Source: an uncultured virus (IMG/VR IMGVR_UViG_3300047548_000197) (Duplodnaviria; Heunggongvirae; Uroviricota; Caudoviricetes). Taken from it: 64,000 nucleotides of DNA. How positions within the stretch are numbered: the stretch's first letter is position 1; each line of letters starts with the position of its first letter. The position numbers were made by a program, and so were the translations under genes. The notes under the pieces were generated by a model, which saw only the letters and a list, made by a program, of their open reading frames with translations, did no database searches and was not told the origin of the DNA. Below are positions 14,343 through 63,640 of the stretch, in pieces. The stretch is taken from the IMG/VR virus record IMGVR_UViG_3300047548_000197, one strand, 5' to 3'.

Positions 14343-14767
14343 AACAAAAGTGGATTAACGCATTCATGGACACAGCTGAACGATTCGCTCAGCTGAGTTC
14401 TGCAAAGCGATTACAAGTTGGTGCTGTTGTCGTAAAAGATGAACGCATCACATCAATTGGTTATAATGGCACACCTGCTGGATGGGACAACAACTGTGAA
14501 GAACTTGTTCACAGAATCGCTGAAGAGCCGATTCTTAAAACTAAACCAGAAGTGATCCATGCAGAAGCCAACGCTATTTCTAAGTTGGCTAAATCATCTG
14601 AGTCTGGTGCTGGCTCTACTATTTTTATCACTCATGCCCCATGCGTTGAGTGCGCTAAATTAATATACGGTGCTGGCATCAAGCATGTCTACTACCGTAA
14701 CTCATACCGCAATGATGACGGATTGAATTTTTTATCTAAATGTAATATTGAAACGGAGAAAGTTTGA
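14339..14767 (+). CDS. cd: dCMP deaminase
   Basis: GYNGTP, HAEANAI, PCVEC motifs. Confidence 0.93.
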   Translation: MKQKWINAFMDTAERFAQLSSAKRLQVGAVVVKDERITSIGYNGTPAGWDNNCEELVHRIAEEPILKTKPEVIHAEANAISKLAKSSESGAGSTIFITHAPCVECAKLIYGAGIKHVYYRNSYRNDDGLNFLSKCNIETEKV

Positions 14768-15639
14768 AGAATTACTTGATCGCTTTACTGTTTGCTTTTG
14801 GCACAGCCCATGCAACAGAAACTATTAAAATTTACTCACCATATAGTCCAACACATTCTGGTACACCAGCAATGTACAAGATTATAGAGACAGCAAACCG
14901 TAGTCAAAACATCTATAATTTTGTTTTGGAGTTCAAGCCTGGAGGCAATCAAATCATTGCTCTCAAGTCTATGGATGCCAACAGTCTTGGTATCATTGCT
15001 CCAGCATTTGTAGAAAATGTAGCTGCTGGTAAGGTCAAAGAGTCAGATTATATTCCTGTTCATGCTCTTGGTGATGCTTGCTGGACTGTTATTACTAATG
15101 GACCAATCAATGTCAACAAAGAGTTGACCGTTGGTGGTGTTGGATTCGGTAATGCTGCGCACCTGACTGCTCTCGCTCTTGGTGAGAAGTACAAGTTTGA
15201 TGTCAAGTACATTGTGTTTAAATCAAACAATGATGCGCTGGTCAATATGGCAGGTAACAATGGTATTTTTATGGTTATCGATCGTCATGAAGCATATGAA
15301 TCCATGAAGATCAAGAATTCTAACTTACAAGCATTCGCTGCTTCTTGTCCAACACGTATTCCCACTGCGCCAAATGTCAAGACCCTAAAAGAAATTGGTA
15401 TTGATGCACCTTACGTGTTCAACATCACAGTTGCTTCAAAGTCTATGGATGAGACTCGTCGTAAAGCAATTAGTATCATTCTTAATGATGCACAAGCCAA
15501 GGTTGGAGCCGATGAAATCTTTAAAGTTTCTGGTATGAAAGTTCCTGCTGTTACACCAGAACAATTCTACACAAAGTCTATTGGTACTGTTAGACGTTTA
15601 CAAGAAAAGTATCGCGATAAAATTGAGGCTTCTAAATGA
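14764..15639 (+). CDS. Divergent Bug/TctC-like periplasmic substrate-binding protein
   Basis: Signal peptide; EFKPGG, GNAAHL, PNVKTLKEIGID. Confidence 0.7.
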   Translation: MKNYLIALLFAFGTAHATETIKIYSPYSPTHSGTPAMYKIIETANRSQNIYNFVLEFKPGGNQIIALKSMDANSLGIIAPAFVENVAAGKVKESDYIPVHALGDACWTVITNGPINVNKELTVGGVGFGNAAHLTALALGEKYKFDVKYIVFKSNNDALVNMAGNNGIFMVIDRHEAYESMKIKNSNLQAFAASCPTRIPTAPNVKTLKEIGIDAPYVFNITVASKSMDETRRKAISIILNDAQAKVGADEIFKVSGMKVPAVTPEQFYTKSIGTVRRLQEKYRDKIEASK

Positions 15640-17315: not shown

Positions 17316-18260
17316 ATGAAGAAATTTTTACTGTTGTTGCTATTCCCAGTGCTGGCGCATGCATGGCAACCAGATTCGTCAAAACCAATTGAAGCGATTA
17401 TGGCATGGACTCCAGGGAGCGTTAATGAAATTTCCTTTAGGGTTTTGGCCAAACAAGTTGAACAAAATACAGGAGCAAAATTTGTTATTGTGAACCGTCC
17501 AGGTGCTGGTGGTGTTATTGGCACTGAAGAACTAAGCAAGAAACCAGCTGATGGTTACTTTGTCACTAACGTGTCAGTTCCAGGTATTGCTGCAATGGAC
17601 AAAGTTTCTGTTCGCGGTGAAGGCAGAACATACACAACAGACAGCTTTGTTTACCCAACTCATGTGGCATCAAGCCCATTTGTTGTAGTTGCCAAGGCTG
17701 GTGATCCAGTTAAGAATCCAAAGCAATTAGTCCAAGCCTTGAAGACAGAAAAGGTTACTATCGCTGCCAGCGGTGGTGCTAGATTAGTCTATGAGTCTAT
17801 TGCGTCTAATGTTAAGTTTGGCGATGTTGTTCGCGTAGATCACAAAGGTCCAGTTGATGCTCTTAATGATGTGGTTGGTGGACACGTAAGATTCGCTATT
17901 GTTCCAGCACTTGTTGCTAACCCTCTTTACAGAGATGGACGAGTACAAGTTGTGGCACTAAGTGGTAACACACCGCTAGTTCAGATTCCTGATGCTGCGA
18001 CTATGGATACAGCTATTCCAAAGTTCAATGTATCTGGTATGTGGGCTCTAATGTTACCTGCGAACGCACCAAAAGAAGTTGTTGAATGGTACAACCGAGA
18101 GTTCACCAAGGCTATGAAGTCTGAAGAAGTCAAAGCTGTGTTCTACGACAACCTATTGACTGAAAATAAGGCTTTACAGAACCCAGAAGCCATGAAATTA
18201 TGGGTAAAAACACGCGAAAAACAGTGGCAACCGTTGGTAGAAGCCGTTTTAGCTAAATAA
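17316..18260 (+). CDS. Bug/TctC tripartite tricarboxylate transporter substrate-binding protein
   Basis: VIVNRPGAGGVIG, KPADGY, KGPVDALNDVVGGHV, PANAPKEVV. Confidence 0.9.
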   Translation: MKKFLLLLLFPVLAHAWQPDSSKPIEAIMAWTPGSVNEISFRVLAKQVEQNTGAKFVIVNRPGAGGVIGTEELSKKPADGYFVTNVSVPGIAAMDKVSVRGEGRTYTTDSFVYPTHVASSPFVVVAKAGDPVKNPKQLVQALKTEKVTIAASGGARLVYESIASNVKFGDVVRVDHKGPVDALNDVVGGHVRFAIVPALVANPLYRDGRVQVVALSGNTPLVQIPDAATMDTAIPKFNVSGMWALMLPANAPKEVVEWYNREFTKAMKSEEVKAVFYDNLLTENKALQNPEAMKLWVKTREKQWQPLVEAVLAK

Positions 18261-18353: not shown

Positions 18354-19124
18354 ATGACAGCGCAAGCAAGACCAGTAAATGAATTCCTAGATGACCTATG
18401 GGATTCTTTCAAGCCTCTACACAAGGTTGCCGAGATTCAAACTCGTCAATTCTTTGCAGAAAAGGGTCAAGACAAGAAAGAATTGGCTAACTTCTTCCAC
18501 ATCCGTTTGTCTAACGAACGTATGAACATGATCGAACTTTCTAAGAAAGTTTCTGAGCTACCAGCTTTGACAGATCCAGAAGAATGCCGTTTGCTTTCTA
18601 AGCAAGCATGGGACGAAGCAGAACACTTCCGCATCGTATACGAAATCCTTGAGCACCTAACTGGCGAGAAACCAGACCTAGAAGCTATCTGGAAAGAGTA
18701 CGGTAAAGTTGACGTTCGTATGGGCGCTTCTCTAATTCAAAAGTACGAAGCACATGATAATCCAATCATGATGCACATGTATCAGTACATGGCAGAAGGT
18801 CGTGCTGCTGAAGTTTGGAAGACTATGGCACAATGTGCTGGTGATGAATTCATCCAGCGTCGTTATGACCGTGTTGCCCGTGACGAAAAGTTCCACTCTA
18901 ACATTGGTCGTTTGATGTTGGAAAAAGTTTGTACTACTAAAGAAGCACAAGACGAAGCTCTTTCTTACGTTAAAGAAATGGTTTGGGACTTGTTCGAATG
19001 CTCTTGCACTTCACTAGGTGACTTCAAGACAGCTTCTCCAGAAGTTCAAGCTATCATGCTAGAAGCATACGGTGAACCACACCGTGATCTATGTGTTGCA
19101 TTTAACGGTAAAGAAGCAGTCTAA
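18354..19124 (+). CDS. Ferritin-like diiron protein
   Basis: Paired DEAEH and DEKFH ExxH motifs; strong RBS. Confidence 0.8.
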   Translation: MTAQARPVNEFLDDLWDSFKPLHKVAEIQTRQFFAEKGQDKKELANFFHIRLSNERMNMIELSKKVSELPALTDPEECRLLSKQAWDEAEHFRIVYEILEHLTGEKPDLEAIWKEYGKVDVRMGASLIQKYEAHDNPIMMHMYQYMAEGRAAEVWKTMAQCAGDEFIQRRYDRVARDEKFHSNIGRLMLEKVCTTKEAQDEALSYVKEMVWDLFECSCTSLGDFKTASPEVQAIMLEAYGEPHRDLCVAFNGKEAV

Positions 19125-19142
19125 ACACCGCTCTTTATTGTA

Positions 19143-19712
19143 ATGCGTATTTTGATCTCAATGAGGGATGTTCGCATCCCTCCAAATAATTTCTTGTTTG
19201 ACTGCTTGGAAAGAAGTTGGTACGACTTTCTAAGCGGTCACACTCTTATTCCACACGCCAATACTGTTACTGTGGATGAGAGCATTGAGTTTGATTGTCT
19301 TGTTCTAACTGGTGGTCCAGATTCTCTTGCACGTAACACAACAGAAAACAATCTGTTTTTGCATGCAATTAAAAGAAAGAAGCCTATCATTGGAGTCTGT
19401 CACGGTGCGTTTGTTGTGAACGAACTAACTGGTGGATCCAACGATATCATCCCAGAGTTGATCCCAGCACATGACAATACAAAGCACATGGTAGAGATGG
19501 ATGGTAAGACGATAGAAGTCAACAGCTATCATGGTCAAGTGATTCGTAAGTTAGGGTCTACAATGATTCCACTTGCAACTCATACACCAGATGCAACTAT
19601 CGAAGCGTTTCGTCATCACACCTTGCCAATTTTTGGTATCGTCTGGCACCCAGAAAGAATGGAGAATCCAGTGCTACCACAAGCAGTGCAAAATATTTTA
19701 GAAAATACTTGA
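19143..19712 (+). CDS. Class I glutamine amidotransferase-like / peptidase C26 protein
   Basis: LTGGPD, GVCHG, VNSYH, WHPE catalytic triad motifs. Confidence 0.88.
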   Translation: MRILISMRDVRIPPNNFLFDCLERSWYDFLSGHTLIPHANTVTVDESIEFDCLVLTGGPDSLARNTTENNLFLHAIKRKKPIIGVCHGAFVVNELTGGSNDIIPELIPAHDNTKHMVEMDGKTIEVNSYHGQVIRKLGSTMIPLATHTPDATIEAFRHHTLPIFGIVWHPERMENPVLPQAVQNILENT

Positions 19713-19789
19713 CTTTTTTCCGTTTCTGACGTAAAATTTGTCTAAATAGATCGAGAAGAGAAAACCTTACAGGTTGTAGGGTTTTTCAC

Positions 19790-19818
19790 TTGACTTTAAA
19801 CCAAGGATGTAGTAGAAT
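19790..19818 (+). promoter_or_regulatory. sigma70-like promoter of the leader ORF
   Basis: TTGACT-17-TAGAAT; predicted start site falls at the leader ATG. Confidence 0.7.
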
Positions 19819-19824
19819 TCAATC

Positions 19825-19959
19825 ATGTTAAAAATATCTTGTTCCAGAATGCATAAACAGCTACCGTTGAATAACGGATGGACAAGCACACGCCCATCAT
19901 TTGTCGAAGGCGCTGGTTACGCGATTGAGGATACGAAGGGTTTTGGTAAGAAGATGTAA
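19825..19959 (+). CDS. Putative attenuator leader peptide (44 aa)
   Basis: MLKISCSRMHKQLPLNNGWTSTRPSFVEGAGYAIEDTKGFGKKM; all 20 amino acids; 3' end overlaps the antiterminator strand. Confidence 0.7.
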   Translation: MLKISCSRMHKQLPLNNGWTSTRPSFVEGAGYAIEDTKGFGKKM

Positions 19960-19985
19960 GACGACTTAGATTAGGTCTCTTTACC

Positions 19986-20025
19986 AAAACCCTCGAAGAT
20001 GAAAGTCTCGAGGGTTTTTTGTTTT
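19986..20025 (+). terminator. Intrinsic terminator competing with an antiterminator
   Basis: AAAACCCTCGA...TCGAGGGTTTT followed by a T-run. Confidence 0.8.
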
Positions 20026-20031
20026 AGGGTG

Positions 20032-20297
20032 TTGACTTTTATCACAACTGTGGTATAATACAATGCTCTGTTACTGATGACAGTTTTGCGAATCCCCTTC
20101 AATGTTGAGGGTCTTTCAAGAAAGTTGTTGACAGTAACGCTGACATGATGTAGAATTATGTCTTAGTTGGTTGAGATGATCGTATCTTAGCCAAGACCTT
20201 ACGGTTAGTGAGGTTATTAAAAACGGTATTGACTATAAATCGTAAATGATGTATAATCAATACCTTGCTGCGACAGCGGCATGGTTCTTTAAAAATT
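20032..20297 (+). promoter_or_regulatory. Three tandem sigma70 promoters and a boxA-like site heading the tRNA array
   Basis: TTGACT/TATAAT 20032-20059, TTGACA/TAGAAT 20128-20156, TTGACT/TATAAT 20229-20257, GGTTCTTTAAAAA 20283-20295. Confidence 0.75.
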
Positions 20298-20315
20298 CGG
20301 GACTTTGTTTTAAAA

Positions 20316-20393
20316 CGACTTAGGTTTGAAAGTCGGGGTAAGTGACTCGGTGTAAACTGATATCGACCTCCCTGTTAGTATTGCCTAAGTCGT
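20316..20393 (+). ncRNA. Putative stem-closed ncRNA
   Basis: ACGACTTAGG/CCTAAGTCGT terminal stem; internal motif shared with 24417-24640. Confidence 0.5.
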
Positions 20394-20398
20394 CTTGT

Positions 20399-20472
20399 TC
20401 CTCCATGGTGTAATGGTAACACAACGGGCTTTGAACTCGTTATCGTTGGTTCGATTCCAACTGGGGGTGCCA
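20399..20472 (+). tRNA. tRNA-Gln(TTG)
   Basis: Cloverleaf, loop CTTTGAA, CCA. Confidence 0.85.
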
Positions 20473-20573
20473 AACAAAAACATACTAACCAGTATCGTAG
20501 CAGTACTGCTAGGCTACAGGATTTTCGTGGGTTCGATCCCCACAACTAGGTTCGTTAGTATGTTTTTGTTTGG
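20470..20573 (+). ncRNA. Putative ncRNA: 20-bp stem enclosing a T-arm
   Basis: CCAAACAAAAACATACTAAC/GTTAGTATGTTTTTGTTTGG; internal GTGGGTTCGATCCCCAC. Confidence 0.55.
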
Positions 20574-20595
20574 TAATCGTTCACAAGGAGAAGTT

Positions 20596-20727
20596 ATGAA
20601 ACGAAAACAAATCGTGCGCGAACGTAACTGCTTCGTTCGATTAGCACTATTCCGTAAAGCAGGTGTACATCGTAAGTCTAACAAGGCTCTGCGTCGTGCA
20701 CAAAAACAATCACCATTGGGTTTGTAG
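20596..20727 (+). CDS. Small basic protein whose stop codon lies inside tRNA-Lys
   Basis: AAGGAG RBS; MKRKQIVRERNCFVRLALFRKAGVHRKSNKALRRAQKQSPLGL. Confidence 0.7.
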   Translation: MKRKQIVRERNCFVRLALFRKAGVHRKSNKALRRAQKQSPLGL

Positions 20728-20794
20728 TTTAACGGCAAAAACATCTGGCTTTTAACCAGTAAGACTCTCGGTTCGAATCCGAGCAGACCCACCA
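20718..20794 (+). tRNA. tRNA-Lys(TTT)
   Basis: Cloverleaf, loop CTTTTAA, CCA. Confidence 0.85.
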
Positions 20795-20806
20795 AAAGTT
20801 CTTAGG

Positions 20807-20880
20807 GGTGGGCATAGTGTAGTGGCAGCACCCGACTCTGTGAAAGTCGTAGTATGGGATCGTTACCCATTGTTCACCCC
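20807..20880 (+). tRNA. tRNA-His(GTG), complete CCA not encoded
   Basis: Loop CTGTGAA, G-1 and C73; flanks extend the acceptor stem. Confidence 0.8.
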
Positions 20881-20895
20881 TAAGAATTTTTTAGT

Positions 20896-20971
20896 GCCCT
20901 CGTAGCTCCAATGGTAGAGCAGAGGATTGAAAATCCTTGTGTTGCTGGTTCGAATCCAGCCGTGGGCACCA
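20896..20971 (+). tRNA. tRNA-Phe(GAA)
   Basis: Cloverleaf, loop TTGAAAA, CCA. Confidence 0.92.
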
Positions 20972-20979
20972 CAAATTAT

Positions 20980-21053
20980 TCCTTCGTAGCTCAAAGGTAG
21001 AGCAATCGGCTGATAACCGATAGACAGAGGATCGTTACCTCTCGAAGGAACCA
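20980..21053 (+). tRNA. tRNA-Ile(GAT)
   Basis: Loop CTGATAA, CCA. Confidence 0.88.
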
Positions 21054-21058
21054 AACAT

Positions 21059-21151
21059 GGAGACGTTAGCCGAATCGGCATAGCGGCAGCTGCCTTGAAA
21101 GCAGAAGGCTCAGAAATGGGTGTGTGAGTTCGAGTCTCACCGTCTCCGCCA
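21059..21151 (+). tRNA. tRNA-Ser(TGA)
   Basis: Loop CTTGAAA, long variable arm, G73, CCA. Confidence 0.88.
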
Positions 21152-21156
21152 AGTTT

Positions 21157-21230
21157 GCCCTATTAGTATACTGGTATTATTCCTGTCTTGTAATCAGGAG
21201 AAGGCAGTTCGATTCTGTCATGGGGCACCA
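21157..21230 (+). tRNA. tRNA-Thr(TGT)
   Basis: Loop CTTGTAA, CCA. Confidence 0.85.
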
Positions 21231-21235
21231 GTTTT

Positions 21236-21299
21236 AGGATTCTTTCAGCAAAATACAAAATTTCAAACTTATATCTTGAAAAGAAAGCGAATCCTGTTG
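21236..21299 (+). ncRNA. CAGCA-stem RNA copy 1
   Basis: AGGATTC-tttCAGCAA...GAATCCT-GTTG. Confidence 0.65.
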
Positions 21300-21306
21300 A
21301 TTTTAT

Positions 21307-21381
21307 ATCGCGTTCGACTTCAGGTGAGGTCATCAGCCTTTCAAGCTGACTAGACGGGATCGTTACCCGTACGCGATACCA
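21307..21381 (+). tRNA. tRNA-Glu(TTC)
   Basis: Loop CTTTCAA, CCA. Confidence 0.85.
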
Positions 21382-21386
21382 ATTAT

Positions 21387-21462
21387 GAGTCGGTAGTTCC
21401 AATGGCAGAACGACGGTCTCCAAAACCGTATGTTGGGGGTTCGAATCCCTCTCGGCTCGCCA
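21387..21462 (+). tRNA. tRNA-Trp(CCA)
   Basis: Loop CTCCAAA, CCA. Confidence 0.9.
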
Positions 21463-21469
21463 ATTTTAT

Positions 21470-21548
21470 TCCGTAGAATCCAAGCAAGGTGCAAGGACTT
21501 GACTGTTAATCAATGATTAGACTGGTTCGATCCCAGTGTACGGAGCCA
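21470..21548 (+). tRNA. tRNA-Asn(GTT), atypical D-arm
   Basis: Loop CTGTTAA, CCA. Confidence 0.75.
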
Positions 21549-21633
21549 AGGGCAAATAGAGATCTTGTTTTGATGCATGGTCTCTCAATGTTTGTTAGTT
21601 TCAATGGGTGGTATAGAAACTGACACTAATTTT

Positions 21634-21708
21634 GGGCTGATAGTGATAATGGGAGCACAGGGGCTTTGCAAGCCTTTAGTCGGGGTTCGATCCCCCGTCG
21701 GTCCACCA
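21634..21708 (+). tRNA. tRNA-Ala(TGC)
   Basis: Loop TTTGCAA, G3:U70, A73, CCA. Confidence 0.88.
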
Positions 21709-21715
21709 AGATTTC

Positions 21716-21789
21716 CTCCGATTAGTGAAATGGTATCACCCGTGCTTTGGGAGCATGTAGCGCAAGTTCGATTCTTGCATCGGAGACCA
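21716..21789 (+). tRNA. tRNA-Pro(TGG)
   Basis: Loop TTTGGGA, CCA. Confidence 0.88.
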
Positions 21790-21794
21790 GTTTT

Positions 21795-21864
21795 AGAGTA
21801 GGTTCAGCAACACATTAGAACACCAAACCGTTAATTTGTCATGTTCGACATAACTACTCTGTTG
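21795..21864 (+). ncRNA. CAGCA-stem RNA copy 2
   Basis: AGAGTAG-gttCAGCAA...CTACTCT-GTTG. Confidence 0.65.
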
Positions 21865-21870
21865 TATTAT

Positions 21871-21945
21871 GGGGGCAGCACAGGGGTGCGGCGGATCCTT
21901 GCAAGATTCGTGTCTAGTAGGGTTCGATACCCTCGGCTTCCACCA
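21871..21945 (+). tRNA. Atypical tRNA-Ala(TGC) with reduced D-arm
   Basis: Loop CTTGCAA, G3:U70, T-arm, ACCA. Confidence 0.65.
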
Positions 21946-21951
21946 ATTTCT

Positions 21952-22027
21952 ACCGTAGAGTTCACCTGATGGTGATAACCGACTGTCTATCGGATTGTGG
22001 CGGGTTTGATTCCCGTCTACGGTGCCA
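21952..22027 (+). tRNA. tRNA-Asp(GTC), atypical
   Basis: Loop CTGTCTA, G73, CCA. Confidence 0.75.
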
Positions 22028-22033
22028 TGTTTT

Positions 22034-22095
22034 AGGAAAGGTTCAGCAAACCAAAAGCTAACTTTGGATGTCTAGCGACAAAAACTTTCCTGTTG
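22034..22095 (+). ncRNA. CAGCA-stem RNA copy 3
   Basis: AGGAAAG-gttCAGCAA...CTTTCCT-GTTG. Confidence 0.65.
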
Positions 22096-22100
22096 TATTT

Positions 22101-22175
22101 GGGTTGTAAACTTTGATGATGAAGCCTCGGCTCTTAACCGATGAGAAGACAGTTTGAGTCTGTCACGACCCACCA
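22101..22175 (+). tRNA. tRNA-Lys(CTT)
   Basis: Loop CTCTTAA, CCA. Confidence 0.8.
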
Positions 22176-22220
22176 AACCTCGCCTTAACTGATGGCGTAT
22201 AATGAGATAAGTAATCAGTT

Positions 22221-22279
22221 ATTTTTCTGAAGCACAGCGCCGAGCAGTCAAGTTAATGAGTGCTGTGCTTCAGAAAAAT
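22221..22279. repeat. 20-bp inverted repeat hairpin
   Basis: ATTTTTCTGAAGCACAGCGC / GTGCTGTGCTTCAGAAAAAT. Confidence 0.8.
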
Positions 22280-22408
22280 GGGGACATGATGTAATGGTAG
22301 CATAGCATAGCAAAAAGTCAATCCTGTCTGTAGGATTGTTTCCGCAACACTAACGCTCTAACTCTGTGAAAGTTCTTGTACGTGGTTCGAATCCCGTTGT
22401 CCCCACCA
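22280..22408 (+). ncRNA. tRNA-His(GTG)-like RNA with an ~55-nt insertion between D and anticodon arms
   Basis: GGGGACA/TGTCCCC-ACCA acceptor, D-arm, AACT-CTGTGAA-AGTT, T-loop; insert carries a permuted CAGCA-type stem. Confidence 0.65.
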
Positions 22409-22415
22409 GTTTTAT

Positions 22416-22490
22416 GCCTTGTTAACTCAGCGGTAGAGTAGCTCCCTTACAAGGAGACGGTCGGCGGTTCAATCCCGTCACAAGGTACCA
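22416..22490 (+). tRNA. tRNA-Val(TAC)
   Basis: Loop CTTACAA, CCA. Confidence 0.9.
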
Positions 22491-22495
22491 ATTAT

Positions 22496-22569
22496 GCGTG
22501 TGTAGTTTAATGGTAAAATCAGACGTTGCCAACGTTTAGTTGAGAGTTCGATTCTCTCCACCCGCACCA
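22496..22569 (+). tRNA. tRNA-Gly(GCC)
   Basis: Loop TTGCCAA, CCA. Confidence 0.85.
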
Positions 22570-22575
22570 AGTTCT

Positions 22576-22679
22576 AGGTTAGTTACAGCAAAAATTAATG
22601 CACTGTCAATGGTTGACAAATTGCCTTCTAAGCAATCGTTTGTGGGTTCAAATCCCACTGCAAAACCCCTAACCTGTTG
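22576..22679 (+). ncRNA. CAGCA-stem RNA copy 4, enclosing a tRNA-Arg(TCT)-like core
   Basis: AGGTTAG-ttaCAGCAA...CTAACCT-GTTG with internal D, anticodon and T arms. Confidence 0.7.
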
Positions 22680-22684
22680 TTTTT

Positions 22685-22761
22685 GTCCCTTTAGCATAAC
22701 TGGAGAATGTACCATCCTACGAAGTTGGGCGATGCAGGTTCGAATCCTGTGGGGGACGCCA
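22685..22761 (+). tRNA. tRNA-Arg(ACG)
   Basis: Loop CTACGAA, CCA. Confidence 0.88.
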
Positions 22762-22767
22762 AGTTTT

Positions 22768-22872
22768 AGGCTACTTTCAGCAAACCAAAATTCATAGGTT
22801 CGATTCCTATATTATCCACCAGCCGAAAGGCACTTCGGATGATCGCCATTGGGGCATCAAGGTAGCCTGTTG
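22768..22872 (+). ncRNA. CAGCA-stem RNA copy 5 with internal T-arm
   Basis: AGGCTAC-tttCAGCAA...GTAGCCT-GTTG; ATAGG-TTCGATT-CCTAT. Confidence 0.65.
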
Positions 22873-22877
22873 TTTAT

Positions 22878-22967
22878 GGAGATATGGTCGAGTCTGGTTT
22901 ATGGCACTTGTCTAGAAAACAAGCGGTGGGAAACTGCCCGTGGGTTCAAATCCTACTATCTCCGCCA
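22878..22967 (+). tRNA. tRNA-Ser(AGA)
   Basis: CTTGT-CTAGAAA-ACAAG, long variable arm, G73, CCA. Confidence 0.85.
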
Positions 22968-22988
22968 ATTTTATGAAAGAGGTGTATT

Positions 22989-23567
22989 ATGCCATCAGTA
23001 TTTTTAACAAGTGACACACACTTTGGTCACACTGGTGTGTGTAAGTTTACACGCGAAGACGGTGTTACTAAATTAAGACCTTGGGATTCTCCAGAAGAAA
23101 TGGACGAAGCCATGGTCAAGATGTGGAACGAAACTGTCAAGCCAAATGACAAAGTTTATCACTTGGGTGATGTTGTCATTAACCGCAAGGCATTAAAGAT
23201 CATGCACCGTTTAAACGGTGACAAGATTTTGATTAAAGGCAACCATGATATCTTTAGGTTGGAAGACTATACTCCGTTCTTCCGAGATATCCGTGGAAGC
23301 CATGTGATGAATGGATTGATCTTGACTCACATTCCTGTTCACCCACAACAATTGTATCGTTTTGGTTGTAACATTCATGGTCACTTGCACAGTAACCGTG
23401 TTATGTACCAAGACAAGCACATGGGTGAAATCATAGATCCAAGGTACTACTCTGTATGCGTTGAACAAACAGACTTCAGACCCATCTTGTTTGAGGACGT
23501 CTTGAAGAAAATTCAAGAACAGGGTGGTACCGTGGGTTTCAAGAATGGTAACGGTAAGATAGATTAA
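22989..23567 (+). CDS. Calcineurin-like metallophosphoesterase
   Basis: SDTHFGH, HLGD, GNHD, HGHLH. Confidence 0.92.
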   Translation: MPSVFLTSDTHFGHTGVCKFTREDGVTKLRPWDSPEEMDEAMVKMWNETVKPNDKVYHLGDVVINRKALKIMHRLNGDKILIKGNHDIFRLEDYTPFFRDIRGSHVMNGLILTHIPVHPQQLYRFGCNIHGHLHSNRVMYQDKHMGEIIDPRYYSVCVEQTDFRPILFEDVLKKIQEQGGTVGFKNGNGKID

Positions 23568-23568
23568 T

Positions 23569-23657
23569 GGAGAGTGGGCAGGATGGTAATGCAGCAGATT
23601 GCTAATCTGTCATCGTAGTGATACGGTGAGTGGGTTCGATTCCCACACTCTCCGCCA
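23569..23657 (+). tRNA. tRNA-Ser(GCT)
   Basis: Loop TTGCTAA, long variable arm, CCA. Confidence 0.9.
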
Positions 23658-23732
23658 GTTGTAATGCAGAGTCGCTCTCTGCCGCAGACGTAAGCGAAAT
23701 GCGTGACAGTCGAGGAGAGACCCGAGCCAAAT

Positions 23733-23826
23733 GCTCCCATAGTTTAATGGTAAAACACCTGATTTATACTCAGCATCGTCGCCAGATTAGCGAGCGTTGT
23801 AGGTTCGAATCCTACTGGGAGTACCA
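23733..23826 (+). tRNA. tRNA with TAT (Ile) anticodon and long variable arm
   Basis: CTGA-TTTATAC-TCAG, ~25-nt variable region, T-arm, ACCA. Confidence 0.7.
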
Positions 23827-23832
23827 GATTAC

Positions 23833-23909
23833 GCCGAAGTGATGGAATTGGTATACGTGCCTGTCTCAAAAGCAGGATTCTGTGGGTTCGAGTCCCACCT
23901 TCGGTACCA
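23833..23909 (+). tRNA. tRNA-Leu(CAA), short variable loop
   Basis: Loop CTCAAAA, CCA. Confidence 0.85.
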
Positions 23910-23950
23910 AATTTGACTTATCTGTACAGATAAGGTATAATAGTTGTAAT

Positions 23951-24034
23951 GCGAGTATGGTGGAATGGTATACGCAGCAGACTTAAAATCTGCCTCCTTC
24001 GGGATTGCGAGTTCGAGTCTCGCTACTCGCACCA
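23951..24034 (+). tRNA. tRNA-Leu(TAA)
   Basis: Loop CTTAAAA, variable arm, CCA; internal promoter at 23913-23941. Confidence 0.9.
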
Positions 24035-24041
24035 AGAATAT

Positions 24042-24117
24042 GTCGCTATGGTCTAATGGATAAGGCAACGGTCTTCTACACCGTACGATGGGAGTTCGAA
24101 TCTCTCTAGCGACGCCA
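24042..24117 (+). tRNA. tRNA-Arg(TCT)
   Basis: Loop CTTCTAC, CCA. Confidence 0.9.
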
Positions 24118-24121
24118 TTAT

Positions 24122-24198
24122 GCGCTTGTAGCTCAATGGTTAGAGCAGTGGACTCATAATCCATTGGTTACAGGTTCGAGTCCTGTCGGGCGCACCAG
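24122..24198 (+). tRNA. tRNA(CAT), probably Ile2 (lysidine type)
   Basis: GA-CTCATAA-TC anticodon arm and D-arm resemble bacterial tRNA-Ile2. Confidence 0.8.
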
Positions 24199-24203
24199 AT
24201 TAT

Positions 24204-24281
24204 GTACGAGTGGCAGAGTGGTCCAATGCAACGGATTGCAAATCCGTAAAGCCGTGAGTTCAAATCTCACCTCGTATTCCA
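24204..24281 (+). tRNA. tRNA-Cys(GCA)
   Basis: Loop TTGCAAA, U73, CCA. Confidence 0.9.
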
Positions 24282-24339
24282 GAAATGTGTTGACTTTTTA
24301 ATGAAGTTGATGTATAATAATGTTTAGTTAGTTGAAAAT

Positions 24340-24415
24340 GCACGATTCGTCTATCGGTTTAGGACACCAGCCTTTCACGTTGGTAAGACGGGTTCGATTC
24401 CCGTATCGTGTACCA
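24340..24415 (+). tRNA. tRNA-Glu(TTC), second copy
   Basis: Loop CTTTCAC, CCA; promoter at 24290-24318. Confidence 0.9.
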
Positions 24416-24416
24416 G

Positions 24417-24640
24417 TTTTTATACACATGACAATTTGTTGTCAGCAAGAGAAAGACACGCTAAGAAGATACTTCGAAGGTCAACTTAGTGTAAAAAGAA
24501 TGAGGGTTCGAATCCCTGCACCAGTGGCTGGCATTCTGTCGAGTATCCCAAGTGACGTACCGACCTCCCTGTGCACATAACCGATGGGTGAATGGTATCA
24601 ATAACGTGGTGATACATATAAGTTGTCAGTTGTATAAAAA
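24417..24640 (+). ncRNA. Putative ~220-nt structured ncRNA
   Basis: Long terminal stem TTTTTATACA..TGACAA / TTGTCA..TGTATAAAAA; internal T-loop hairpin AGGG-TTCGAAT-CCCT. Confidence 0.55.
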
Positions 24641-24645
24641 TTAAT

Positions 24646-24733
24646 GGAGGTATCGCATAGCGGTCGATTGCACGGGACTGTAAATCCTGCACCCTTCGGG
24701 GTCTCGGTGGTTCAAATCCATCTACCTCCACCA
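24646..24733 (+). tRNA. tRNA-Tyr(GTA)
   Basis: Loop CTGTAAA, variable arm, CCA. Confidence 0.92.
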
Positions 24734-24874
24734 GTTCGAGCGACGTCAGTTGCTTGTCAATCTTGACATAGGGTCAAGCGTGTTACATGTGCGGGTCAAC
24801 GCCAGTTGGTCTATTCGGTCACCACGCAGAGTGACGGCTAAAGTTCGTAATGCCACTTATTCTTAAGGTGTAAA

Positions 24875-24958
24875 ATGAGAAAATTAAAAAGATTTTGCAT
24901 TAGGTTACTAAGACTTAGAAGAAAGTATTTTTCTGGTTTTAGTACAGGTTTAAACTAA
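24875..24958 (+). CDS. Possible small basic peptide (27 aa)
   Basis: MRKLKRFCIRLLRLRRKYFSGFSTGLN with AAGGTG RBS. Confidence 0.35.
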   Translation: MRKLKRFCIRLLRLRRKYFSGFSTGLN

Positions 24959-24959
24959 T

Positions 24960-25035
24960 GCTCCGTTAGCTCAATTGGGAGAGCGCGACACTGTCACTGT
25001 CGAGGTAAGGGGATCGAAACCCCTACGGGGCGCCA
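24960..25035 (+). tRNA. tRNA-Asp(GTC)
   Basis: Loop CTGTCAC, CCA. Confidence 0.9.
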
Positions 25036-25042
25036 AGGTTAT

Positions 25043-25122
25043 TGCGGGATAGGGGAGTCTGGTCGTCCCCGCTAGTCTCATAAGCTAGAGATCGTGTGGT
25101 TCAAATCCCACTCCCGCAACCA
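25043..25122 (+). tRNA. tRNA-Met(CAT), initiator-like body
   Basis: Loop CTCATAA; acceptor and D-arm resemble fMet; lacks the three G-C anticodon-stem pairs. Confidence 0.8.
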
Positions 25123-25128
25123 TATTAT

Positions 25129-25203
25129 GGTGATATGACGTAGATGGATGCGTGCTGCCCTCATAAGGCATGAAGAGTGGATCGATACCACTTATCACCA
25201 CCA
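25129..25203 (+). tRNA. tRNA-Met(CAT)
   Basis: Loop CTCATAA, CCA. Confidence 0.8.
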
Positions 25204-25217
25204 ATAAATACAAATAT

Positions 25218-25294
25218 GCGGATGTGATGGAATTGGTATACGTGTTGGTCTTAGAAGCCAAATTTTGTGGGTTCGAGTCCCACCATCCGCACCA
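25218..25294 (+). tRNA. tRNA-Leu(TAG), short variable loop
   Basis: Loop CTTAGAA, CCA. Confidence 0.87.
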
Positions 25295-25300
25295 AATTAT

Positions 25301-25375
25301 TCCGAAGTAGCACAGCGGTAGTGCAGTTGACTGTTAATCAATTGGTCGTAGGTTCGATCCCTGCCTTCGGAGCCA
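25301..25375 (+). tRNA. tRNA-Asn(GTT)
   Basis: Loop CTGTTAA, CCA. Confidence 0.93.
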
Positions 25376-25382
25376 TTTTAAT

Positions 25383-25458
25383 GCCCTTTTAGCTCAGTTG
25401 GTAGAGCAGCACATTAGTAATGTGAAGGTCGCGTGTTCGAATCATGCAAGGGGCACCA
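25383..25458 (+). tRNA. tRNA-Thr(AGT)
   Basis: CACA-TTAGTAA-TGTG, GCC acceptor start, CCA. Confidence 0.87.
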
Positions 25459-25481
25459 TTATAGTTTAGTTGGAGAAAACC

Positions 25482-25649
25482 ATGAGTGATGGTGGTAAAG
25501 GTTCAAAGCCACGCCCATTTAGCGTGTCACAAGACGAGTATGATAATCGCTGGGATGCAATTTTTTCTAGAGATCTTCCAAAAGAAACTGAAGAAAAAGT
25601 TACTCGCTACAACGAAGAAACTCAAGAAGTTAAAAAGAATGATAACTGA
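25482..25649 (+). CDS. Small hypothetical protein (55 aa)
   Basis: GGAG RBS; MSDGGKGSKPRPFSVSQDEYDNRWDAIF... Confidence 0.65.
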   Translation: MSDGGKGSKPRPFSVSQDEYDNRWDAIFSRDLPKETEEKVTRYNEETQEVKKNDN

Positions 25650-26301
25650 TATAAAAGTTCTTGATAACTTTTATACACAACCGCATTCTATTGTTGGATT
25701 GGTTGATGATTTTCCTATATCTGGATGTGGTAGTGGAAATAGAAGTATTGGACTAGAATCAATCAACAGAGAAATATATGTTGGTGTCAAGAATGCGCTT
25801 TGCTCTATTCATGGCGTTGATCCAAATAAAGTAAAGTTAAGCACATTCTTTATGCGTCATGAGTACAATGATGTAGATGATATGTTTAATGTTTCAACTA
25901 CTCATATGGATGGTAAAAATCCAGATGTTTGTAGATCTACAGTTGATGAATACAGGTTGGCATTTTGTGGTCAAATATTGTTGACCCCAAAGACAGATCC
26001 AGATTCTGTTGTAACTATTCACAGATTCAAAGATCACATTGATTGGTCGCCACAAGAAATTGTCAAACGATGTATTGACGAGTACACACTTCCAGGTGAG
26101 TTATATCGCGCTGGCAAGATTGATCTAGAAGAATTCAAACGTATGCGAAGTGCGCATGACGATAACTTTGAGTTGACTTGTGAGATCAAAAACGTGTATA
26201 ATAGAATGGTGTCTTGGAAAGGTGGAACTTTACATGGACAAAGAATAACTAAACACACTCCAAAGGTATTGAATCAATACTTTTTTGCTGAGTGGTACTA
26301 A
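25639..26301 (+). CDS. 2OG-Fe(II) oxygenase-like protein
   Basis: VLDNFY start, HMD, NVYNRMV...LHG, QYFF. Confidence 0.65.
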   Translation: MITDIKVLDNFYTQPHSIVGLVDDFPISGCGSGNRSIGLESINREIYVGVKNALCSIHGVDPNKVKLSTFFMRHEYNDVDDMFNVSTTHMDGKNPDVCRSTVDEYRLAFCGQILLTPKTDPDSVVTIHRFKDHIDWSPQEIVKRCIDEYTLPGELYRAGKIDLEEFKRMRSAHDDNFELTCEIKNVYNRMVSWKGGTLHGQRITKHTPKVLNQYFFAEWY

Positions 26302-26305
26302 ATTT

Positions 26306-26382
26306 GCGGGTATGGTGTTTAATGGCTAGCATGACAGTCTTCCAAACTGACGGTACGAGTTCGAATCTCGTTACCCGCTCCA
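26306..26382 (+). tRNA. tRNA-Gly(TCC)
   Basis: Loop CTTCCAA, U73, CCA. Confidence 0.92.
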
Positions 26383-26396
26383 TATAATGAGGTTCT

Positions 26397-26969
26397 ATGG
26401 TAATTATAGATGACTTTATTCCTAAATCCTATCAAGAAGATATTAAGAATACATTTTTACAACAACTGTCGTGGAACTATGTGCCTGATGTTACATTCTC
26501 AGTTTTAGCTAAACAAAACGAACAAGCCCCTGCTGTTGGTCATATGTTCAGAATGTCACAAAACACGCTGTCTGCGTATTTTTCAATGTTGTTGCCAATG
26601 GCGTATAAAGCAGCTGATCATGTTGGCTATACGTTCAATGATGTTGTCAATTGTAGGTCATTCTTACAATTTCCCTTGAATCCTGATTTTCTCGGTCTAC
26701 AGACCGATCCTTGCCATGTTGATCTTAATAGAGATCACTTGGTTCTTTTGTACTATGTTTTAGATTCAGATGGTGATACTATCATCATCGATAAAAAATT
26801 AGATGTTTCGAATGTGAAAGAGTTTGATGTTCATGTAAAAGATCATAATGTTCTTGCCAAGATTTCTCCTAAGCAAGGACGGGCTGTTATTTTTGATGGA
26901 CGTTACTATCACACTGCTGAGCAACCAAAATCTAATATGAGGTGTGTAATTAACTACAATATCATTTAA
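26397..26969 (+). CDS. 2OG-Fe(II) oxygenase
   Basis: HVD, LYYVLDSDGDT, PKQGRAVIFDG..YH, RCVINYN. Confidence 0.85.
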   Translation: MVIIDDFIPKSYQEDIKNTFLQQLSWNYVPDVTFSVLAKQNEQAPAVGHMFRMSQNTLSAYFSMLLPMAYKAADHVGYTFNDVVNCRSFLQFPLNPDFLGLQTDPCHVDLNRDHLVLLYYVLDSDGDTIIIDKKLDVSNVKEFDVHVKDHNVLAKISPKQGRAVIFDGRYYHTAEQPKSNMRCVINYNII

Positions 26970-26976
26970 GGAGAAA

Positions 26977-27462
26977 ATGATGCGACAAATCAATATCGAA
27001 GAAGTCAAGGCTTTTATTCAAGCACAAAGTCCCGAAACCAAAATCTACATCGGTGGAGACTCTGAGCGTTTTAAGATCGGTAATGATTGGTACGCGGATT
27101 ACACTCTAGCTGTTGTAGTGCATATTGATGGAAAACACGGTGCAAAAGTTTTCGGTGAGGTTCAACGTGAACGTGACTGGGATCAAAAGAAAAACCGTCC
27201 ACGTATGCGTCTAATGAACGAAGTTTACAAGATCGCAGAATTGTATCACAAGCTGCATGATGTACTTGAAGATCGTGATGTTCAAATTCACTTGGACATC
27301 AACCCTAACGAAAAGTACGGTTCAAGCTGTGTTATCCAAGAAGCGACTGGATACATTCGTGGTATGTGCAACGTAGTGCCTATGGTTAAGCCACAAGCCT
27401 TCGCTGCAAGTTACTGTGCAGACCGACTAAAGCACATCATGAGCCACCAAAAGGCTGCTTGA
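26977..27462 (+). CDS. RNase H-like YkuK family protein
   Basis: IYIGGDS, RLMNEV, IHLDIN, KPQAFAASYCAD. Confidence 0.8.
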   Translation: MMRQINIEEVKAFIQAQSPETKIYIGGDSERFKIGNDWYADYTLAVVVHIDGKHGAKVFGEVQRERDWDQKKNRPRMRLMNEVYKIAELYHKLHDVLEDRDVQIHLDINPNEKYGSSCVIQEATGYIRGMCNVVPMVKPQAFAASYCADRLKHIMSHQKAA

Positions 27463-37040: not shown

Positions 37041-38441
37041 ATGAAACTTGCAAAAAACATCCTCTTGAACACTGACAGCTACAAAGTCTCTATGTTCAAA
37101 CAATATCCAGCTGGTACAACTGGTGTCTATTCTTACATCGAATCACGTGGTGGTCGTTACGACGAAACCGTGTTCTTCGGTCTCCAAGCATTCATTAAGG
37201 AGTACTTGCTTGAACCAATCACCCAAGCCGATATTGATGTTGCAGATGAGATTCTTACAGCCCACGGCGAGCCGTTTAATCGTGAGGGCTGGCAATACAT
37301 CCTTGATCAACACAAAGGTTTCCTTCCTGTGGCCATTCGTGCTGTACCTGAAGGCACTGTGGTGCCTGTCAAAAATGTACTGGCGACTATCGAAAACACA
37401 GACCCAGAATGTTTCTGGCTGACCACTTATCTTGAAACTGCTTTGCTTCGCGCAGTCTGGTATCCTACCACTGTAGCAACCCAAAGCAAGTCTATCAAGA
37501 ACATTATCAAAGACTTCTTGGAGCGCACTGGTGACCCATCTACTATTGATTTTAAGTTGCACGATTTTGGTGCTCGTGGTGTCTCTTCAATGGAGTCTGC
37601 TGGCATTGGTGGCGCTGCCCACTTGGTTAATTTTATGGGCTCCGACACTATTACTGGTGTACTGTTCGCTCGTGAATATTACAATGCTGGCATCGCTGGC
37701 TTTTCAATTCCAGCTGCCGAACACAGTACTATCACTTCTTGGGGTCGTGATAACGAGGTAAAAGCATATGCTAACATGGTTGCTCAATTCGCCAAACCTG
37801 GTTCCATTGTTGCTATTGTCAGCGACAGCTATGATGTATATAATGCCGCTTCCAAACTCTGGGGTGAACAACTTCGTCAACAAGTTATTGATAGCGGTGC
37901 AACTATCGTTATTCGTCCTGACAGTGGCGATCCTGTTGCTGTTAACCGTCAATTGATTGAGATTCTTGGAGAGAAATTTGGATACACTACAAACACCAAA
38001 GGTTTCAAAGTGCTTAACAATGTCCGACTTATCCAAGGGGATGGGGTCAATGAAATGTCCATCCGAAGTATCCTTGGTGCACTCATGGCAATGGGATGGT
38101 CAGCTGACAACATTGCCTTCGGTATGGGCGGTGCTCTGCTCCAACAGATCGATCGAGACACTCAAAAGTTCGCAATGAAGTGTTCGGCTGCATTGATCAA
38201 CGGTGAGTGGGTTGATGTTCAGAAGGATCCTATCACTGATAGTGGCAAGAAGTCTAAAGCTGGTCGTGTTACCCTTTGGACCAACTCTGGTGGTGAATTC
38301 GCTTCTGGCGTAACTCCACCAACTGGTTGGACTGATCGAGGTATCGGTGGCTGGACTAATGCTCTAGAAATGGTGTTCATGAACGGACAACTGACCAAAG
38401 ATACATCCTTCGCCGAAGTTCGTGCCAACTCTAACAAGTAA
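37041..38441 (+). CDS. nadV: Nicotinamide phosphoribosyltransferase (Nampt)
   Basis: TDSYKVS, LHDFGARG, PAAEHS, SDSYD, IRPDSGDP, QGDG, KDPITD..KKSK. Confidence 0.95.
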   Translation: MKLAKNILLNTDSYKVSMFKQYPAGTTGVYSYIESRGGRYDETVFFGLQAFIKEYLLEPITQADIDVADEILTAHGEPFNREGWQYILDQHKGFLPVAIRAVPEGTVVPVKNVLATIENTDPECFWLTTYLETALLRAVWYPTTVATQSKSIKNIIKDFLERTGDPSTIDFKLHDFGARGVSSMESAGIGGAAHLVNFMGSDTITGVLFAREYYNAGIAGFSIPAAEHSTITSWGRDNEVKAYANMVAQFAKPGSIVAIVSDSYDVYNAASKLWGEQLRQQVIDSGATIVIRPDSGDPVAVNRQLIEILGEKFGYTTNTKGFKVLNNVRLIQGDGVNEMSIRSILGALMAMGWSADNIAFGMGGALLQQIDRDTQKFAMKCSAALINGEWVDVQKDPITDSGKKSKAGRVTLWTNSGGEFASGVTPPTGWTDRGIGGWTNALEMVFMNGQLTKDTSFAEVRANSNK

Positions 38442-62848: not shown

Positions 62849-63308
62849 TATTTTATTCATAGAATCTGTTCTATCACCTGATCACTGCGAGAGATTGATT
62901 AGCGATTTTATGATAGAACAAGTTGGTCCATCTCTAGACTATAATAAACTAGAACGTAAAAAAGTCACTGACAATACAATTGTAGTTGCTCTTGCTAAGA
63001 AATATGGTTTTGTTTATGACAGAGCATTTATACTTCGTTATAAGCAAGGTGACAAGAGCCCATTGCATGTTGATAATGTTTTTGTCAATAACTCCAAAAT
63101 AGAATCACACGGCTGGATAAAGAGTGTTATTGTTTTCTTGAATGATAACTTTGAGGGTGGTGAGTTGGTGTATCCAGATCAAGGAGTTACCATAAGACCA
63201 AAGGTTGGTAATATGGTCGTTGCTCCAGCTGATAGTAGTTCTCCGCATTATGTTACAGAGACTACCTCTGACCGTTATGTTCTTGTGTTACGTTTAGTTG
63301 ACATGTAA
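62838..63308 (+). CDS. 2OG-Fe(II) oxygenase (prolyl-4-hydroxylase-like)
   Basis: LHVD, FLNDNFEGGEL, PH.V, RY. Confidence 0.87.
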   Translation: MASNILFIESVLSPDHCERLISDFMIEQVGPSLDYNKLERKKVTDNTIVVALAKKYGFVYDRAFILRYKQGDKSPLHVDNVFVNNSKIESHGWIKSVIVFLNDNFEGGELVYPDQGVTIRPKVGNMVVAPADSSSPHYVTETTSDRYVLVLRLVDM

Positions 63309-63331
63309 TAAATATATAAGTATAATATAAG

Positions 63332-63640
63332 TTATTGCTGTAATTCCTTCAAAGCGAAGGACTTCTGGACGGGGGTTCGACTCCCCCCATCTCCACCAAA
63401 AGCATCTATTCCCTTTAGTGAAACCCAAATGCTAGGGTGTAGCATTACTAAAGGGCGCAATGGGTGTTTTTGATGGGGATGCCATGGTTTCGACAGGGGT
63501 AGATAGTAGCGACGGCAGCACGGTAGGCGATGACCGTAAATCAAGCAAACTAAGTAAATGCAAACGACAACGTTTTCGCATTAGCAGCCTAATCACTGCT
63601 TAGGGTTTCGGTTGGTTTCCTCGTAACAGAATAACCAACC
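63332..63640 (+). ncRNA. ssrA: Circularly permuted (two-piece) tmRNA
   Basis: T-arm and acceptor 3' strand ending CCA at 63398, intervening hairpin, 5' strand GGGGATG at 63475, tag ANDNVFALAA-stop at 63560-63592; promoter TTGACA-17-TATAAT at 63298-63326. Confidence 0.92.

Follow-up and report, generated by a model that had tools for sequence, protein, structure and literature searches.

A leader open reading frame containing all 20 amino acids as a candidate attenuator of a phage tRNA operon

The stretch of DNA analysed here (hereafter the window, meaning the whole stretch of 64,000 nucleotides (nt)) stems from a large uncultured phage of the Caudoviricetes, IMG/VR record IMGVR_UViG_3300047548_000197. 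The public runs containing it are freshwater or aquatic metagenomes, and it encodes an rIIA-like protein with ~30% identity to the versions found in Aeromonas T4-like phages. Between the gene for a class-I glutamine amidotransferase/peptidase C26 homologue (19143-19712) and an array of transfer RNA (tRNA) genes lies a short leader open reading frame (ORF), which follows a predicted promoter, P1, and runs into a predicted RNA hairpin that overlaps an intrinsic terminator (Table 1). The ATG is located only 6 nt 3′ of the P1 -10 hexamer, leaving no room for a ribosome-binding (Shine-Dalgarno) site. A preliminary description of the locus, made from the letters of the sequence, had listed promoter, ORF, pairing and terminator, and the coordinates of all four were reproduced. 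The 19990-20014 stem was absent from the output of a consensus terminator scan that covers loops of 3-8 nt, for which we take its 11-nt loop to be the reason.

Table 1 Predicted features of the leader region and the tRNA array, in window coordinates
Feature	Position	Strand	Remarks
Promoter P1	19790-19818	+	TTGACT 19790-19795, 17-nt spacer, TAGAAT 19813-19818; 10/12 consensus matches
Leader ORF	19825-19959	+	44 codons, all 20 amino acids, leaderless
Small in-ORF hairpin, CCGTT / AACGG	19864-19877	+	from RNAalifold on 32 whole transcripts; compensatory changes
Conserved box G-W-T-S-T-R-P-S-F	19876-19902	+	almost no synonymous variation
Segment 1, antiterminator 5′ arm	19934-19954	+	last seven codons of the ORF
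Stop codon TAA	19957-19959	+	in the hairpin, past its 5′ arm and short of its apical loop; 30 nt upstream of the terminator stem
Segment 2, antiterminator 3′ arm	19976-19995	+	end bases CCCUCG (19990-19995) double as terminator 5′ arm
Intrinsic terminator	19990-20025	+	stem 19990-19996 / 20008-20014, T6 at 20015-20020, then G T4
Three further promoters	20032-20059, 20128-20156, 20229-20257	+	each 11/12
tRNA array	20399-26382	+	30 genes, 28 anticodon species, all 20 amino acids; first gene tRNA-Gln

Searches among cultured phages returned no homologous leader: blastn of 19000-21000 against phage records hit 35 records, all over tRNA-sized stretches of no more than 4% of the query, and no tblastn match of the peptide among 50,697 phage records had an E value below 0.7; the match inspected overlaps annotated genes. 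Homologues were taken from IMG/VR contigs of uncultured T4-like freshwater phages. Searches with the neighbouring amidotransferase, with a 19-base pattern and with a peptide alignment recovered 29, 12 and 45 loci, respectively, and the 45 peptide-alignment loci together with three from the amidotransferase set make up the final collection of 48 loci, representing 40 distinct sequences. An open frame of 37-46 codons with its stop inside the hairpin, followed by the terminator, is kept in all 48. A -35/-10 pair with an ATG 6-10 nt after the -10 hexamer is present at all related loci but L081, which has no clear promoter. Within 10-kilobase flanks, a tRNA array follows the leader at 37 of 40 loci, the other three ending 45-256 nt past the stop codon. 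These related arrays comprise up to 35 genes; the first is always tRNA-Gln, at a distance of 89-485 nt from the stop codon, and tRNA genes upstream of the leader are absent at every locus.

The ATG is invariant among the 40 distinct leaders, and length differences between them preserve the frame. Comparison of the proportions of nonsynonymous (pN) and synonymous (pS) differences gave pN < pS in 703 of 725 sequence pairs (those with pS > 0.15), with a median pN/pS of 0.55, and conserved K, L, P and G columns are written with mixed synonymous codons, e.g., AAA 21 / AAG 19 or CCG 22 / CCA 16 / CCT 2. Judged by these substitution patterns, the leader ORF is a coding sequence under purifying selection, and it is probably translated. 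The same data bear on the possibility that the 195-nt P1 transcript acts as an RNA, either as a processing substrate or in trans, with the frame being incidental. Such a function would fit a fold more stable than that of shuffled sequences (z -3.0), the near-invariant codons at 19876-19902 (TGG in 40/40, CCA in 39/40, CGC in 38/40 and TTT in 33/40) and the covarying hairpin at 19864-19877, in which pair 54/66 is AU in 12, GC in 11 and GU in 6 sequences and pair 55/65 is CG in 12 and UA in 11; this hairpin may be a pause element. Yet a non-coding transcript would not be expected to hold an ATG at a fixed distance from the -10 hexamer in 40/40 sequences, a frame that is open in every homologue, or synonymous variation at conserved residues. 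In addition, an Rfam scan of 19000-27000 (E ≤ 1) gave no family in 19700-20398, the matches being of tRNA type or due to chance and all within the tRNA array. We regard a purely non-coding function as very improbable.

What sets the leader apart is its composition. All 20 amino acids are present in 36 of the 40 distinct leaders, and 19 in the remaining four. Among segments of the phage's own long genes, by comparison, the full set is reached by 0.24% at 37 residues, 0.58% at 40 and 1.6% at 44. Only 2 of the 248 ATG-to-stop ORFs of 35-50 amino acids in the six frames of the window contain all 20; since these two do, composition in the window alone is only suggestive, and its significance comes from the comparative data. 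Exactly one Tyr is found in 40/40 leaders, spread over four columns of the alignment; Cys likewise occurs at four columns and is absent from two sequences, His alternates between two adjacent columns, and Gln and Val are found at nine and thirteen columns, respectively. Because related sequences share history, a tree-based simulation served as the null model: sites evolved independently along a FastTree phylogeny of the 40 leaders; the root carried all 20 amino acids, and each column was given its own parsimony change count and residue frequencies (2000 runs). This yielded 9.2 ± 5.6 tips with all 20 (maximum 32), as compared to 36 observed, and a mean of 20.5 tips with exactly one Tyr (maximum 38), as compared to 40 observed. 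Metagenome contigs contributed 16 further distinct ORFs, of which 14 contain all 20 and two are without Val; that scan left out four loci, three of them running off the contig and one missed by the pattern. An unrelated Klebsiella phage served as control: among the 10 annotated ORFs of up to 50 amino acids in its tRNA region, none has all 20 (13-18 kinds each). Measured against the tree-aware null, the full amino-acid set is under selection.

Codon choice in the leader is similarly broad. As stated in the preliminary description, the window's leader uses all 20 amino acids, with 35 different codons among its first 38, and the synonyms it had listed (Leu TTA/CTA/TTG; Ser TCT/TCC/AGC/TCA; Gly GGA/GGC/GGT; Asn AAT/AAC; Glu GAA/GAG) were all found. 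Its expectation of about 28 distinct codons under uniform use was recomputed as 28.45 ± 2.05, which gives P(≥35) = 0.001, or ~1e-5 with the phage's own codon usage. Among 9021 segments of 38 codons from 33 long ORFs, none reaches 34 distinct codons. Given the peptide and the phage's codon usage, the number of distinct codons exceeds expectation in 38 of the 40 leaders, with P < 0.05 in 22, these tests being non-independent. The window's leader also over-uses minor codons (mean logarithm (ln) of the relative synonymous codon usage -0.049 vs 0.165 ± 0.075, P = 0.005). Under simple wobble rules, 27 of the array's 28 anticodon species can read codons of this leader, with a maximum of 26 among 9021 gene segments of 44 codons, and in phages with 24 or more tRNAs in reach such coverage exceeds expectation in 17 of 17 (individual P 0.018 to 0.47).

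At the RNA level, the minimum-energy fold of 19825-20028 (-58.8 kcal/mol, z -3.03) pairs segment 1 with segment 2. Helices were counted in 39 aligned sequences (37 distinct). In the terminator, 97% of cells are paired, and three of the seven pairs show compensatory changes (one of them is UA in 17 and GC in 15 sequences). The antiterminator hairpin is 87% paired, with one compensatory pair (GC 19 / AU 15) and one-sided changes that keep the pairing; its core, GGGUUUUGG with CCAAAACCC, is invariant and hence uninformative on covariation. The layout of the ORF end, with the 5′ arm formed by the last codons and the stop placed before the terminator stem, is the same across the 39-homologue alignment. 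In L077 and L122, the 5′ arm is short of one T and the 3′ arm of one A; the helix is kept and the peptide tail is frameshifted. In L079, both arms are rewritten and the peptide tail is different, and by eye the arms still pair and take the terminator CCC. Covariation and survival through frameshifts argue that the RNA arms outrank the peptide tail. The arrangement had been described as classical attenuator geometry. This stands insofar as the ORF tail pairs with the strand of the terminator 5′ arm, but there are three segments, not the classical four. As a candidate fourth segment in the style of trp leaders, GCCC (19892-19895) was considered and not adopted: RNAalifold pairs it only with the terminator 3′ arm and without covariation, and its weak complementarity to the 5′ arm was seen by eye only.

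A second leader family occupies the same place in phages whose amidotransferase is 63% identical. The first-family peptide is absent there and a different ORF takes its position, a search with which identified nine loci with six distinct sequences (L128, L132-L136). These leaders are 47-50 residues long counted from a conserved Met, contain all 20 amino acids in 6/6 and are not leaderless. Here the antiterminator pairs the terminator 5′ arm, GGACCCU, with a segment of the ORF tail that reads UUAGGGUCC or closely resembles it (e.g., UCAGGGUCC in L133); it is the minimum-energy fold in 4/4 sequences folded, and the overlap is longer than in the first family. Since the GGGUCC core is read in two different frames among the members, their peptide tails are wholly different. 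In L128 and L136, the two members inspected by eye, the full set of 20 amino acids is encoded ahead of the 5′ arm, and a tRNA array is found downstream of the second-family leader wherever sequence is available. The preliminary description had looked to related phages for a leader that precedes the tRNA array and retains high codon diversity and covarying helices while the peptide diverges. The first three features were recovered in the first family. As for divergence, the second family has a different peptide with the same properties, but within the first family a core motif and its codons are conserved.

Taken together, we propose that the leader is probably a 20-valent, ribosome-mediated transcription attenuator of the phage tRNA operon. 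RNA from P1 would start at the AUG or no more than a few bases away from it, and a 70S ribosome would load as the 5′ end emerges and follow the polymerase, the leaderless start setting both off together. A ribosome that stays in step over the ~40 codons would come to sit on the last codons and the stop and keep 19934-19954 single-stranded; CCCUCG (19990-19995) would then be free to pair downstream, and transcription would terminate at 20015-20020. If the ribosome lags at a codon for which charged tRNA is scarce, the 5′ arm would instead pair with 19976-19995 and take the CCC, the terminator would be weakened, and the polymerase would continue into the tRNA genes. With all 20 amino acids in the ORF, transit time would depend on every tRNA pool, and as the products of the operon are the very molecules being read, the arrangement would provide product feedback on tRNA supply. 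The transcription start, translation, the direction and size of the effect and its trigger (starvation or tRNA cleavage by host defence) are here inferred, and the link to anticodon nucleases or other tRNA-cleaving defence is pure inference.

A leaderless start combined with this helix geometry would respond to any slowing of translation, and in the available portions of two reports, known stress-sensing upstream ORFs act in this way (PMC12121999, PMC4191407). The leader might accordingly monitor transcription-translation coupling in general, e.g., an abortive-infection shut-off or the loss of 70S ribosomes, instead of single tRNAs, its composition being secondary. That account would leave selection on the full amino-acid set and on synonymous breadth unexplained, and it would not extend easily to the second family, which lacks the leaderless start; we consider it improbable.

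Several observations weigh against the proposed whole-pool attenuator. Three promoters of 11/12 lie between the window terminator and the tRNAs, and most relatives have at least one; with three intervening, read-through from P1 would add only part of the window's tRNA transcription. In the first family, the helix overlap is short (3-5 nt), and when CCC pairing was forced upstream or downstream, the median energy difference was 0 kcal/mol, the upstream pairing being more stable in 19 of 38 cases. The two folds are iso-energetic because the 5′ arm repeats the terminator 3′ arm (GGGUUUU), a repeat on which the design of the proposed switch rests but which also means that the switch may be leaky rather than decisive. 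Most amino acids are single-copy, and one codon may respond only to severe depletion. Stalling at any codon had been proposed to be sensed, with which the retention of all 20 in 36/40 leaders agrees, but in 40/40 an invariant Asp codon precedes the GGG within that arm's sequence, the antiterminator 5′ arm, by 8 nt. Given ribosome footprints of the usual size, a ribosome stalled there would mask the 5′ arm, so Asp is presumably not sensed. A second residue falls into the same too-close zone in 21/40 leaders, and the other 19 amino acids are clear of it in only 19/40. Given the peptide, tRNA-species coverage in the window is borderline (P = 0.05). Exact Watson-Crick codon-anticodon matching, dropped in favour of wobble coverage, reaches 18 of 28 species, which is equalled by 10.8% of gene segments and is unremarkable. 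The sensor model also offers no explanation for the near-invariant core K-[QH]-L-P ... G-W-x-[SC]-[ST]-R-P and its codons, nor for the near-zero synonymous change across W-T-S-T-R-P-S-F (19879-19902). Leaders of amino-acid biosynthetic operons use codon runs for one to three amino acids, whereas the phage leader has every amino acid, mostly once, and no runs of a single codon. Lastly, start, translation, termination efficiency and read-through are all predictions made from sequence.

The relatives qualify the first of these points. That three promoters lie downstream of the terminator had been noted as a caveat in the preliminary description and holds for the window, but a comparison of 32 distinct intergenic regions gave between 0 and 3 strong sites (10/12 or better) in each. 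No site even at 9/12 is found in 5/32 (L117, L118, L119, L121 and L122), and in four of these only 28-45 nt lie between the terminator and tRNA-Gln; downstream in L122, a + strand site scoring at least 10/12 first occurs ~850 nt inside the array. With no intervening promoter of the sigma-70 type, the only one scanned for, the first tRNAs of these five phages would need read-through of the terminator. Two other promoter types were considered for the window. The sequence TCTTTAAAAAT, conserved before tRNA-Gln and a possible hidden phage promoter that would weaken the case for read-through, was rejected as such, being non-recurrent in the window (4 matches with at most one mismatch vs 3.07 expected), and what we take to be the T4 late-promoter consensus is not enriched there (2 vs 2.32 expected). 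Metatranscriptome contigs from four runs were compared with 18500-22500: one 970-nt contig of a relative spans from ~100 nt before the ORF through the terminator and beyond, at a depth of 95 as compared to 5-10 for contigs on the upstream gene. Starts, ends and strand are not readable from such contigs and DNA is possibly present, so they were counted neither for nor against.

The same intergenic region holds two conserved elements. A motif TTCTTTAAAA(A)TT, not recurrent in the window, is kept 30-110 nt before tRNA-Gln in distant clades (window 20285-20297; L118 10206-10218; L122 10177-10189) and may be a tRNA-precursor processing signal. At 20085-20112 in the window, and at the corresponding place in L030, L032, L040, L041 and L006, there is another small hairpin (CCCTTCA...TGAGGG, with TCTTT or TTATT behind it); it lies after the terminator and, depending on lineage, before or after the next promoter.

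Most relatives have one to three promoters behind the terminator, so that their tRNAs would not need P1. Combined with the strong and conserved terminator, the conserved peptide core and pN < pS, this would suit a stand-alone small-protein gene, in which P1, ORF and terminator form an insulated unit, the ~40-residue peptide acts on a host or phage target, the hairpin stabilises the mRNA 3′ end and the tRNA array is a neighbour by synteny only. Five homologous proteins are indeed recorded as called genes in a large protein collection, one under the name 'hypothetical protein' and none with an informative name. However, Pfam gave no match for any of 12 aligned leader peptides, and PHROGs gave none for the window peptide and a single weak one (E 0.29) for 1 of the 12. 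AlphaFold2 run on the 12-sequence alignment returned no confident fold (predicted local distance difference test score 59.9, predicted template modelling score 0.13, no secondary structure). A small-protein gene also gives no reason for retaining all 20 amino acids while rare residues shift position, for RNA arms that still pair where the peptide tail is frameshifted or rewritten, or for a second family that has a different peptide with the same all-20 composition and helix overlap. Minor codons are favoured, which is unusual for a gene selected for output, and 5/32 relatives leave no room for another promoter. We judge this explanation to be unlikely, and the attenuator remains our preferred reading.

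Leader-peptide attenuators are known from the trp, his, phe, thr, ilv and leu leaders of enterobacteria. With attenuators of amino-acid biosynthetic operons, as covered in the accessible parts of two accounts (PMC1183508, PMC3082878), the phage leader shares a short upstream ORF and a terminator 5′ arm that has an alternative upstream partner; in both, ribosome position would select the helix and completed translation would favour termination. In contrast to them, the phage leader would regulate tRNAs, comprises three segments instead of four, is leaderless and is phage-borne. T-box leaders bind one uncharged tRNA directly, without an ORF. Like these, the phage leader would couple the state of the tRNA pool to the choice between antiterminator and terminator, but it has an ORF and no T-box match by Rfam. 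The leaderless short ORFs with polycysteine runs of mycobacteria are comparable in that a leaderless first cistron sets downstream expression, and they differ, according to the excerpt available, in responding to one amino acid through a run of Cys codons and in being encoded on a bacterial chromosome (bioRxiv 10.1101/834739). In toiL of Escherichia coli (PMC12121999) and the bmrB leader of bmrCD in Bacillus subtilis (PMC4191407), again going by partial texts, stalling on an upstream ORF raises downstream expression via a change in termination. Both respond to ribosome-targeting antibiotics at particular codons and control no tRNA genes, and the portions available report no all-amino-acid composition.

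Phage tRNA arrays have been known for decades. In the accessible sections of recent papers, phage tRNAs are presented as a means of evading host tRNA-cleaving defences (PMC10264068, PMC11555353, PMC11464382). A full-text literature search returned, within the passages it retrieved, no description of an all-amino-acid leader peptide or of attenuation before, or regulation of, phage tRNA arrays.

Some further features of the array and the remainder of the window deserve mention. The Rfam tRNA model gave two extra matches without an ARAGORN call (41.1 and 45.5 bits, above the gathering score), and a tRNA-Sec-like match scored 32.3 bits, below threshold; the coordinates of these three extra tRNA-type matches are 22599-22663, 25129-25200 and 21951-22024. 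Within the array lie two ORFs without a Pfam match (22989-23567 and 25486-26301; 192 and 271 amino acids) and promoter-like sites of 11/12 at 23913, 24290 and 26173. A tRNA with the anticodon CUA, called 'tRNA-Pyl' by ARAGORN, occurs in 8 of 18 tabulated arrays (L089, L092, L093, L098, L103, L112, L113 and L124) and also in L006 (8222-8298), and looks like an amber suppressor. A pairing of TAG-ending leaders with CUA-tRNA phages was considered and rejected: the stop codon of the leader is TAA or TGA in each of the eight phages, and the five leaders that end in TAG all come from phages without a CUA-anticodon tRNA within reach. A transfer-messenger RNA (tmRNA) gene is present at 63306-63683, with the tag ANDNVFALAA, and relatives L019, L020 and L021 have tmRNA tags ending in AQFALAA. 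Together with the freshwater origin, a tag of the FALAA type may point to a betaproteobacterial host.

Upstream of P1, the last part of the amidotransferase gene overlaps another promoter-like site (TTGACT-17-TAAAAT, 19709-19737). Behind this site come the conserved short sequence TGTCTAAATAGATC and what looks by eye like a small terminator hairpin (19764-19786). The block 19709-19789 is kept in close relatives and could be another tiny transcription unit. Elsewhere, the window encodes two TctC-type periplasmic solute receptor homologues, which are unusual phage cargo, and a nicotinamide/nicotinate phosphoribosyltransferase (14764-15639, 17316-18260 and 37041-38441).

Beyond the attenuator itself, we tentatively entertain a wider view, which we find possible but would not yet assert: that the leader, translated while racing the polymerase and sampling all amino acids and almost all phage tRNA species, acts as a product-feedback attenuator through which a shortfall of any single tRNA, whether by starvation or by a tRNA-cleaving defence, opens the complete tRNA set, that the two families have kept this design or converged on it, and that 'whole-pool' leaders are perhaps general in large phages. 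If true, leader-peptide attenuation, which senses one to three amino acids, would be extended to the cell's decoding capacity as a whole. Similar sensors would then have a sequence signature, namely a short ORF with all 20 amino acids that ends in a helix overlapping a terminator, and the leader would be a compact natural part that reports any tRNA shortfall. The proposal makes it testable whether phage tRNAs are made constitutively or on demand.

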